This document shows, piece after piece, positions 1 through 1,467 of a stretch of 1,467 nt of DNA (position 1 is the stretch's first letter; every line of letters begins with the position of its first letter). The notes under the pieces were generated by a model. That model saw nothing but the letters and a program-made list of their open reading frames with translations. It ran no database searches and was not told where the DNA came from. Origin of the DNA: Naegleria gruberi (Eukaryota). Location: assembly GCA_000004985.1 (NCBI GenBank), contig GG739416.1. One strand, written 5' to 3'. Made by a program: the position numbers and the translations under genes.

Positions 1-1467
1 CATAGCGAGAACAATGAATTGGAAAACCTAAAACAGCAAACAATTCAAATGGTGGAACATTGTAAGAATGTAAATGGAGAGGTTATTGTGCCATTCTTTG
101 GTTATACTGGCGTGGGAAAGTCTCTGCTCATCAATCTTCTATCCAATTGTAAACTCATAACTGTTAAGAATGAAATGGACCTTGATGTTTTGGATTTTGA
201 AGATGCAAAGACTAAAGTTGGCCAAACTCTTGAATCAGAAACTTCTACACCAATATGTGTGAGAAATAATGATTGTGAATACATCATATTGGATTGTCCT
301 GGATTTTTTGATAACAGAGGCGATTTGACTCGATTAATGGTAAATCTATCCATTAGGTTATCAATTCAACAAGCTCTCCAAGTGAAAGGAATTGTAATTA
401 TGATAGATATTGATGATTTAATTAACAGGAGTTCAAAATTCAATGAAACTGCCTCATTATTTGGAACCATGTTGAAGGAAGATTTTCCAGAAAAGTCTAT
501 GATTGTTGTTATCAACAATAAGAAAGGTAACAAGGTCAACAGGTACACAGTTAACAAAGCTATTGAATTACAACTACAAGGAGCGAAATCAAGATGGTTG
601 AGATTAGCTCAACAGACTGCATCCTTTTTGAAATTTTGTTCTGATGGAGAGAAAGAATCTGCCAGCGTTAGATTTCTCAATTTACTTCATTCAAATCTTG
701 ACAGAGTATTCCTGTTAGATGTAAACAATCAAAATTCCATAGTAGAAATCAAAAAAGCAATTAATAATCTATGTCCTGTCAGTTGTGAATATTTTGAAAC
801 CAATACTTTCGATGAAACATGGAATAGATACAACAATGTTATCAGGAAGGTTATGGAAGAATCTATCAAGTTTTATGATAATTATGTAAACATCAAACGA
901 TTAATGGATCAACAAAAAACTAACATTGCTGAATTGAACACCAGAATTGAAAGTTATTCAGATAGGCTCAAAGAAATTCAAAAAACAAATATTGAGAAAG
1001 AGTCTGAGCAGGTTGATTATGGATTACAACGACTTTATTCTGAAAAGAAGGATGAAATCAAACGTCTTACTCAAGAATTGGATGCACTGAATTTATTAAT
1101 CAAAAAAACTCAGTTTTCAAGAGATGAATTGTTAAAGAAACAAAAGGAGCTTGATAGTGAAGAAGAAAAACAAATTTTCAAGGAGCAAATTAGTGAAAAA
1201 CGAAATTCTATTCTGGGATGGATTTCATATACTGCTAAAACCATTGAATATGATGCTCAATGTCCATTCAGGGAAGAAAAAACAATTACCACTGGAAAAT
1301 TACAAGAATCAAAGAAACATTCTTCAACTTATTATCACAAGTATTATTTTACTAATTGGGGAGAAGATGCTGAAATGAGCTTAATTCTTTTTGCAAAGAA
1401 AAAAGATCTTCCTGGTAACATAATTATGTCCGCAATTAATAGAAATGATTACAAAACATTGAGGAAG
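1..1467 (+). CDS. Internal fragment (partial at both ends, at least 489 aa) of a large multi-domain P-loop GTPase: AIG1/GIMAP-like (septin-like TRAFAC class) G domain followed by a long coiled coil
   Basis: Frame +1 is open for all 489 codons at roughly 1/3 G+C; a random open frame of this length is extremely unlikely (a hand estimate with ~7% stop probability per codon gives about 1e-15). All five other frames are broken by frequent stops. The translation carries recognisable GTPase motifs in the canonical order and spacing. There is no start or stop inside the window, so the gene continues upstream and downstream. Confidence 0.88.
100..123 (+). other. G1 / Walker A P-loop motif GYTGVGKS (GxxxxGK[ST])
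   Basis: Codons 34-41 of frame +1, ggt tat act ggc gtg gga aag tct, are read directly from the sequence. Next comes LLINLLSNC, matching the 'GKS-hLhN-Lh' helix typical of TRAFAC GTPases (Era, EngA, septin, GIMAP). Confidence 0.85.
241..258 (+). other. Candidate G2 / switch-I element TSTPIC (T-x-x-C signature of AIG1-type G domains)
   Basis: Codons 81-86 are act tct aca cca ata tgt. They lie about 12 residues upstream of the DxPG motif, the spacing seen in AIG1/GIMAP proteins. Which Thr is catalytic cannot be decided by eye. Confidence 0.45.
289..312 (+). other. G3 / Walker B motif LDCPGFFD (hh-D-x-P-G-h-F-D)
   Basis: Codons 97-104 are ttg gat tgt cct gga ttt ttt gat. DxPG preceded by hydrophobics (IIL) is the canonical switch-II start. 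The trailing G-h-F-D resembles GIMAP (DTPGLFD) and septin (DTPGFGD) rather than Ras-like DTAGQE. Confidence 0.8.
505..528 (+). other. G4-equivalent element VVINNKKG (degenerate [NT]KxD: Gly in place of the guanine-specificity Asp)
   Basis: Codons 169-176 are gtt gtt atc aac aat aag aaa ggt, a hydrophobic strand followed by N-N-K-K-G. This is in the position where GIMAPs have hhhFT[RH]K[DE]D and classical GTPases have hhhNKxD. The preceding 'ASLFG' parallels the GIMAP 'hFG' segment. The alignment is by eye only. Confidence 0.45.
886..1206 (+). other. Predicted coiled-coil region (~105 aa), E/K/Q/L-rich with heptad-like hydrophobic spacing
   Basis: Translation: ESIKFYDNYVNIKRLMDQQKTNIAELNTRIESYSDRLKEIQKTNIEKESEQVDYGLQRLYSEKKDEIKRLTQELDALNLLIKKTQFSRDELLKKQKELDSEEEKQIFKEQISEKRN. 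It is continuous charged/helix-favouring sequence with I/L/V/Y recurring at about 3-4 residue intervals and no Pro, and one Gly (in VDYGLQRL). Confidence 0.6.

Follow-up and report, generated by a model that had tools for sequence, protein, structure and literature searches.

Contig GG739416.1 of the Naegleria gruberi assembly GCA_000004985.1 is an orphan scaffold of 1,467 nucleotides, and the whole of it (positions 1-1467, here called the window) is read through by a single open frame. The window is most likely a nuclear scaffold of N. gruberi that carries an intron-free, internal stretch of a gene encoding a multidomain nucleotide-binding protein. This gene falls in a Naegleria clade within a family composed largely of effector-type bacterial proteins, and its product would act as a GTP-gated E3 ubiquitin ligase. 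Bacterial GIMAP-type effectors were already known, and the window gene is a fragment of an annotated, uncharacterized Naegleria gene. A first-pass annotation of the window, made from the sequence alone, had taken the arginine codons as a hint that the gene may be eukaryotic; this conclusion was correct, but not on codon grounds.

Relatives and genomic setting in Naegleria

HMMER, run exhaustively over 1.84 billion cluster representatives, recovered 546 relatives of the window product at E ≤ 1e-3; a word-indexed profile search returned three matches only. The best relatives were P0003 from a Naegleria sp. (36% identity, 766 amino acids) and P0004 from N. lovaniensis (31% identity, 787 amino acids), with E values of 2e-69 and 3e-51 for the nearest Naegleria genes and 3e-29 for the next relative. 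P0003, P0004, P0152 and the window formed one clade in 200 of 200 neighbor-joining bootstraps. P0004 is annotated as a “U-box domain-containing protein” (XP_044542194/KAG2373020), and P0152 (XP_044544003) is its paralog, 99% identical and located on a different N. lovaniensis contig. Over the GTPase (G) domain, a helical hairpin and a beta-rich domain, the window was collinear with all three (29-36% identity), and its G1, G2 and G3 motifs recur in them. Unlike the window, P0003 and P0004 are full length (766-787 amino acids), extend further through a second coiled coil to a U-box, and use almost no AGG codons. None of the Naegleria relatives has been characterized, and no literature linking Naegleria to this GTPase family was found.

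P0004 lies on a 107-kb contig with Pkinase, MBOAT, isocitrate/isopropylmalate dehydrogenase (Iso_dh) and TFIIB/BRF1 genes as neighbors. It has a single intron (GTAAGT...CAG, ∼97 nt; N. lovaniensis locus L001, 11457-11553) inside the beta domain, between YDKRY and VSKFG; the homologous position is uninterrupted in P0003 and in the window, which has no intron. P0003 is flanked by DJ-1-like (DJ-1/PfpI-like) and ERG24 genes that are 82-86% identical at the nucleotide level to those of N. lovaniensis. It occupies a syntenic site between ERG24 and the DJ-1-like gene (contig L002, 1073-4340); in N. lovaniensis no gene intervenes between these two, which are separated by ∼570 bp (L040, 8886-9455). In a search for repeats on either side of the P0003 gene, only short chance matches came up. 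The intron and eukaryotic neighbors of P0004, the synteny at P0003, the fully supported clade and the low CpG ratio of the window (see below) support a eukaryotic setting for the clade, and the gene is eukaryotic, as the first-pass annotation had supposed. Paralogs between Naegleria species were only 33% identical, compared to 91% for the neighboring ERG24; given this divergence, the presence or absence of the gene at the syntenic site and the two 99% identical copies in N. lovaniensis, the Naegleria clade is small, fast-diverging and prone to gain and loss.

Reading frame and public gene model

Frame +1 of the window (1..1467, + strand) comprises 489 codons without a stop and is open at either end, and the remaining five frames contain 21-59 stops each. 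The GC content of the window (31.8%; 27.4% at third codon positions) is compatible with the 29.4% published for the N. gruberi assembly of 784 scaffolds (PMC11702301, Table S1). The product was rich in Asn (41), Lys (49) and Ile (39), in agreement with the earlier description, and Leu (50) and Glu (44) were also high.

A search of 5.8 billion proteins found an NCBI “predicted protein, partial [Naegleria gruberi]” (P0001, 413 amino acids) that is 100% identical to the window product. This public gene model is wrong at both ends (Table 1). Its start at Met59 lies 3′ of the P-loop (residues 34-41), which is thereby left out of the model. Its end immediately precedes the sequence GGTAAC at nucleotide 1414, probably read as a splice donor; the frame itself runs on as a confident helix (residues 471-488) to the end of the contig. 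No intron is required, as the frame is collinear with the intronless relative P0003, and the earlier description of an intron-free reading frame thus held. P0003 and P0004 align to query residues 4-474 from their residues 22 and 28 onward, respectively, with query residues 4-473 corresponding to residues 22-491 of the 766 in P0003. Judged by full-length relatives of ∼770-790 amino acids (P0003, 766; P0004, 787), the window appears to be an internal part of the gene that is short of ∼20 residues at the N terminus and ∼290 at the C terminus, the U-box among the latter.

Domain architecture

Structural features (Table 1) were taken from an AlphaFold model (m6b59b9ad2c6f) built with a 43-sequence family alignment (predicted local distance difference test [pLDDT] of 90.8); a model from the single sequence reached a pLDDT of 41 and was not usable. 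Motifs found family-wide were G1 (G.TG.GKS), the switch I threonine T81, G3 ((C)DCPGF.DNRG) and a reduced G4 ([NT]K) that lacks the Asp. The intact P-loop, switch I Thr and DxxG suggest a working nucleoside triphosphatase. A U-box was present in 18 of 43 family members, including both full-length Naegleria proteins (residues 639-710 in P0003 and 660-729 in P0004); the window contig ends ∼150 residues short of this position, and Pfam found no U-box in the window itself.

The hairpin recovered weak coiled-coil-type Pfam and PDB matches only. The beta domain (residues 389-466) has conserved G/F/Y/P columns in the family consensus and no Pfam match. In a viral fold search this domain showed a weak, non-significant likeness to phage tail-fiber-like proteins (E ∼0.2-0.5). 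A PDB match to Legionella LepB (4jw1, E = 0.038) was judged to be due to chance. Rfam and tandem-repeat searches of the window gave no matches, and an NCBIfam search gave no score near the cutoffs. PADLOC returned marginal matches only, indicating that this is not a known anti-phage system, and no relatives were found in phages by a tblastn phage search or a scan of IMG/VR.

Table 1. Positions of the public gene model, predicted domains and motifs in the window
Feature	Position (nt)	Strand	Remarks
Gene model of P0001	175..1413	+	Residues 59-471; starts at internal Met59, ends ahead of conserved sequence
N-terminal helix before G domain	7..72	+	Residues 3-24, AlphaFold model
P-loop GTPase (G) domain with helical extension	79..786	+	Residues ∼27-262; TRAFAC-class, nearest GIMAP/Toc34 (AIG1-like)
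G1/Walker A P-loop GYTGVGKS	100..123	+	Residues 34-41; G34, G39, K40 and S41 nearly invariant in family
G2/switch I SET	235..243	+	T81 invariant family-wide
G3/switch II DCPGFFDNRG	292..321	+	Residues 98-107; D98 and G101 invariant; P100, F102 and R106 nearly so
G4-like NNKK	514..525	+	Residues 172-175; family consensus [NT]K, no conserved Asp after
Long antiparallel helical hairpin, stalk-like or coiled-coil	814..1152	+	Helices 272-331 and 338-384; pLDDT mostly >90
Conserved beta-rich domain	1165..1398	+	Residues 389-466, AlphaFold; strands 389-399, 412-418, 424-436, 444-450 and 457-466
Start of next helix, leaving contig	1411..1464	+	Residues 471-488; relatives continue with second coiled coil and U-box

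Affinity of the G domain to AIG1/GIMAP GTPases

The G domain is related to the AIG1/GIMAP/Toc GTPases as an outlier; by the Pfam criterion the window is a non-member, and the remaining architecture is unlike that of GIMAPs. The AIG1/GIMAP label given to the gene by the first-pass annotation stood at the level of profile and fold (GIMAP7, Toc34) and failed at the level of Pfam, where the window matched MMR_HSR1 only (PF01926; 27.1 bits, E = 4.7e-6, residues 32-172, above the gathering score of 21.9). MMR_HSR1 was matched by 41 of 43 relatives and AIG1 by 12 of 43 (E ≤ 0.01), and the Candidatus Amoebophilus protein P0016 passed the AIG1 cutoff (27.6 bits, profile positions 3-206 of 212). At the motif level, the window has a G1 of the form G....GK[ST] (GYTGVGKS, residues 34-41) and a G3 of the form D.PG-hydrophobic-x-D (DCPGFFD, residues 98-104). 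At G4 it reads NNKKG (residues 172-176) in place of a conserved Asp, and the family consensus [NT]K is followed by no conserved acidic residue.

The nearest solved G domains were those of GIMAP7, GIMAP4 and Toc34, and the top ranks of a Foldseek search against the PDB were held by pea Toc34, GIMAP7 and GIMAP1 (E = 3.5e-6 to 2e-4). A family profile of the G domain only placed GIMAP7 first among PDB sequences (E = 8.4e-8), with G1 and the stretch from G3 to G4 covered by the alignment. Between G3 and G4, where GIMAPs have their “conserved box”, HMMER put the family profile on GIMAP7 residues 63-196, with GIMAP-specific residues unconserved. The best viral match was a pithovirus “AIG1 family protein”.

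Identity of the window to human GIMAP7, GIMAP4, GIMAP1 and GIMAP2 (PDB 3zjc, 3lxx, 3v70) was only 13-16%, and GIMAPs are without the hairpin, beta domain and U-box, whereas the window is without the AIG1 Pfam match and the G4 Asp. Toc34/Toc33 (PDB 1h65, 3bb1, 2j3e) share the AIG1-type fold and gave the top Foldseek match (E = 3.5e-6); these GTPases dimerize via the G domain, but they are membrane-anchored chloroplast import receptors with no E3 module and 12-16% identity to the window. The C-terminal module of full-length family members, which lies outside the window, matched U-box E3 ligases (Legionella LubX, plant PUB12, CHIP) and TRIM-type coiled-coil E3 ligases (E = 1e-13 to 1e-9); the likeness covers the U-box/RING and coiled-coil stretches, and none of these ligases has an N-terminal GTPase.

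Bacterial and transcriptome-only relatives

A scan of one genome per bacterial or archaeal species, run with a 12-sequence sub-alignment and with the G3 motif as search pattern, yielded 33 confirmed bacterial loci, every one in intracellular associates of protists. The holders were Legionella/Legionellaceae, Coxiellaceae, Odyssella/Caedibacter/Holosporales, Amoebophilaceae/Cytophagales, Chlamydiae/Parachlamydiaceae and Rickettsiales/Candidatus Megaera. Homology to proteins in bacterial contexts extended over the G domain, hairpin and beta domain (E = 3e-29 to 1e-10). Several of these proteins could be placed by their neighbors: P0011 lies beside a two-component system, DsbD and GroES, P0005 adjoins a suf operon, P0006 adjoins HicAB, and P0009 adjoins a D-Ala-D-Ala ligase. 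P0016 is a Candidatus Amoebophilus protein, and P0074 and P0123 lie on contigs of 2.7-3.9 Mb that we read as bacterial chromosomes. The first-pass annotation had called the domain family overwhelmingly eukaryotic; against this view stand the 33 genome loci, four contigs with bacterial neighborhoods, the Candidatus Amoebophilus protein and the two members on megabase-scale contigs. Outside the Naegleria clade, all relatives whose source could be placed were bacterial except for two transcriptome-only members, one from the choanoflagellate Didymoeca costata (P0085) and one from an MMETSP protist (P0056/P0197), whose protein has 2111 amino acids with ankyrin, EF-hand and LRR domains. These two may be either eukaryotic or derived from co-cultured bacteria. 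The most frequent sister of the Naegleria clade was P0085, with weak support (30 of 200 neighbor-joining bootstraps).

“GIMAP-type GTPase” effectors were described in Amoebophilus and other endosymbionts, in some cases combined with an OTU domain or a U-box, and were presented as a strategy that only endosymbiotic or parasitic bacteria use (Zhang et al. 2012, PMC3482391; Aravind et al. 2012, PMC3417536). The bacterial proteins are homologous to the window over its whole length (E down to 3e-29) and share G.TG.GKS, SET and CDCPGF.DNRG; often they have the same hairpin, beta domain and U-box, and sometimes an OTU domain. Unlike the host-encoded window gene, they belong to bacterial genomes, have bacterial neighbors and composition, and presumably reach hosts by secretion. 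In P0011 (L003, 1785-4751) an OTU deubiquitinase is added after the U-box, an instance of modular variation among bacterial members. Locus L038 (6060-13263) holds three large consecutive genes, the first and third with MMR_HSR1-type G-domain matches and the middle one with no Pfam match.

Arginine codons and base composition

The 22 arginine codons of the window comprised AGA 10, AGG 7, CGA 4, CGT 1, CGC 0 and CGG 0, exactly as counted by hand in the first-pass annotation, which had offered this split as evidence of a eukaryotic origin. Mononucleotide composition alone predicts 62% AGA plus AGG (AGR) and 19% AGG (P[≥17 AGR] = 0.10; P[≥7 AGG] = 0.12), and composition combined with CpG depletion predicts 83% AGR and 26% AGG (P[≥7 AGG] = 0.35). 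The observed shares of 77% AGR and 32% AGG lie between or near these predictions, with every binomial P ≥ 0.1. Pooled over 33 bacterial family genes, AGR made up 39% and AGG 13% of arginine codons; however, the split of the window was matched by individual AT-rich bacterial homologs, including L034 (Rickettsiales; AGA 10, AGG 10, CGA 2, CGT 2), L027 (Candidatus Megaera; AGR 73%, AGG 27%), L019 (AGR 74%, AGG 21%) and L030 (Caedibacter; AGR 75%). Equating AGG richness with a eukaryote-like gene also failed inside the family, as AGG accounted for 0-6% of AGR codons in the closest Naegleria relatives (1 of 17 in P0003 and 0 of 10 in exon 1 of P0004). Because composition and CpG depletion predict the arginine split and AT-rich bacterial homologs match it, the split does not separate eukaryote from bacterium. 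No codon-usage reference for N. gruberi was found in the literature or supplements. An origin of the AGG codons from AAG lysine codons (AGA:AGG of 10:7 mirrors AAA:AAG of 30:19) was rejected, as P0003 lacks this pattern and some AGG codons fall at conserved Arg positions. As a caution, the arginine-codon split in an AT-rich gene of 489 codons carries no taxonomic signal beyond base composition.

CpG depletion is a more host-like signal than the AGG share. The observed/expected CpG ratio was 0.33 in the window (TpG, 1.40; CpA, 1.30), 0.36 in the Naegleria sp. contig L002 and 0.42-1.21 in bacterial loci, with Rickettsiales approaching the window. At the N. lovaniensis locus L001 the ratio was 0.73, so depletion differs markedly between Naegleria lineages. 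N. gruberi has cytosine methylation and Tet enzymes, which might relate to CpG depletion.

Alternative origins of the gene

It is very unlikely that the scaffold is a contaminant or a symbiont fragment in the N. gruberi assembly. The scaffold is indeed a very short orphan without flanks, with AGG use like that of some Rickettsiales members and close family members in amoeba symbionts, and an exact-protein look-up gave no other record. However, the three nearest relatives are Naegleria nuclear genes, far ahead of the next (E = 2e-69 and 3e-51 versus 3e-29), in a clade recovered in 200 of 200 bootstraps, and the CpG ratio of the window is under that of every bacterial locus and equal to that of Naegleria contig L002. 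Moreover, the sequenced N. gruberi strain, NEG-M, is grown axenically. We also consider it very unlikely that the gene is an ordinary, vertically inherited eukaryotic member of AIG1/GIMAP, even though GIMAP and Toc34 are the nearest solved structures and the nearest PDB sequences to the family profile: the window lacks an AIG1 match in Pfam, no named plant or animal AIG1/GIMAP protein occurred among relatives whose source was looked up, the nearest placed homologs outside Naegleria are bacterial, and a hairpin, beta domain and U-box are not a GIMAP architecture. Outside Naegleria the family consists largely of effector-type proteins from bacteria that live inside protist cells, so it has crossed the boundary between bacteria and eukaryotes at least once, in one direction or the other. 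The first-pass annotation had envisaged horizontal acquisition of a eukaryotic immune-type GTPase by a bacterium, should the contig prove bacterial; transfer as such is plausible, but the roles are swapped: a eukaryotic contig here carries a member of a family that is, taken more widely, largely bacterial.

The Naegleria clade, including the window gene, could go back to a bacterial effector gene that was acquired from prey or from an intracellular symbiont and has since been domesticated, an origin that we regard as a serious possibility, if short of an even chance. Such an origin would agree with a family diversity that is largely bacterial (four phyla), with a patchy eukaryotic occurrence (Naegleria and two transcriptome-only cases), with a syntenic site that is occupied in one Naegleria species and vacant in another, and with zero to one intron in Naegleria members. 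The AGG share of the window, atypical of its Naegleria relatives and found in Rickettsiales members, points the same way, and a bacterial origin of eukaryotic GIMAP/AIG1 GTPases has already been proposed (Aravind et al. 2012, PMC3417536). Nonetheless, the best sister candidate of the Naegleria clade reaches only 30 of 200 bootstraps and is itself a choanoflagellate transcript, and the CpG depletion and composition of the window are fully host-like. U-box and GIMAP-type domains are elsewhere typical of eukaryotes, and bacterial U-boxes are usually read as host acquisitions. With only slightly lower probability, an old protist gene may have been captured by amoeba-associated bacteria as a “eukaryote-like” effector and then spread among them. 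Among bacteria, only protist-associated intracellular lineages carry the gene, a distribution classically seen for eukaryote-like effectors (PMC3417536). The accompanying domains (U-box, OTU, ankyrin, EF-hand and LRR) are of eukaryotic type, and members occur in the choanoflagellate and MMETSP transcriptomes. Capture from a protist is harder to reconcile with confirmation at the genome level in one eukaryotic genus only, with transcriptome members that could stem from co-cultured bacteria, and with a sequence diversity in bacteria far above that seen in eukaryotes.

Proposed mechanism and implications

GIMAP, Toc and septin-type GTPases share a mode of action in which nucleotide binding drives dimerization or oligomerization of the G domain. 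By analogy, GTP binding at the intact G1-G3 motifs of the Naegleria protein would drive its G domains to dimerize or oligomerize. The full-length protein is predicted to run from an N-terminal helix through the AIG1/GIMAP-like G domain, hairpin, beta domain and second coiled coil to a C-terminal U-box; the hairpin may provide a stalk, and the beta domain may be the module that binds the target. Judged from full-length relatives, the U-box would recruit a ubiquitin-charged E2 and ubiquitinate whatever the assembly sits on. We infer that the whole would work as a nucleotide-gated, self-assembling E3 ligase. The bacterial proteins of the family are presumably secreted effectors, and host-encoded copies in Naegleria could serve cell-autonomous defense, with a possible role in host-symbiont conflict, or membrane or organelle quality control.

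Several points weigh against reading the window as part of a Naegleria gene for a GTP-gated, AIG1/GIMAP-like E3 ligase. The U-box is absent from the window, and E3 function is extrapolated from relatives that are 29-36% identical. The G4 motif lacks the guanine-reading Asp, so that specificity for GTP is not assured, and Pfam AIG1 (PF04548; gathering score of 27 bits) had no match in the window at E ≤ 1. The flankless scaffold, the only N. gruberi copy available, may represent a truncated or dying gene copy. The AGG share of arginine codons in the window (7 of 22) was also significantly different from that in L002 (1 of 32; Fisher P = 0.006) and in all long open reading frames of the N. lovaniensis locus L001 (12 of 243; P = 0.0003).

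Through the window gene, an amoeba host is connected to a protein family whose other members come largely from bacteria living inside protists, which makes the gene a concrete case of possible traffic between host and symbiont. It is possible, though less likely than not, that Naegleria maintains a genus-specific, rapidly diverging and copy-number-variable set of GIMAP-like GTPase-U-box ligases that descend from a domesticated bacterial effector, or represent the ancestral source of a widespread effector family in amoeba symbionts, and now function in cell-autonomous defense as a protist analog of animal GIMAP, GBP, IRG and TRIM proteins. With a bacterial origin proposed for GIMAP/AIG1-type immune GTPases (PMC3417536), the gene may also bear on how these arose.

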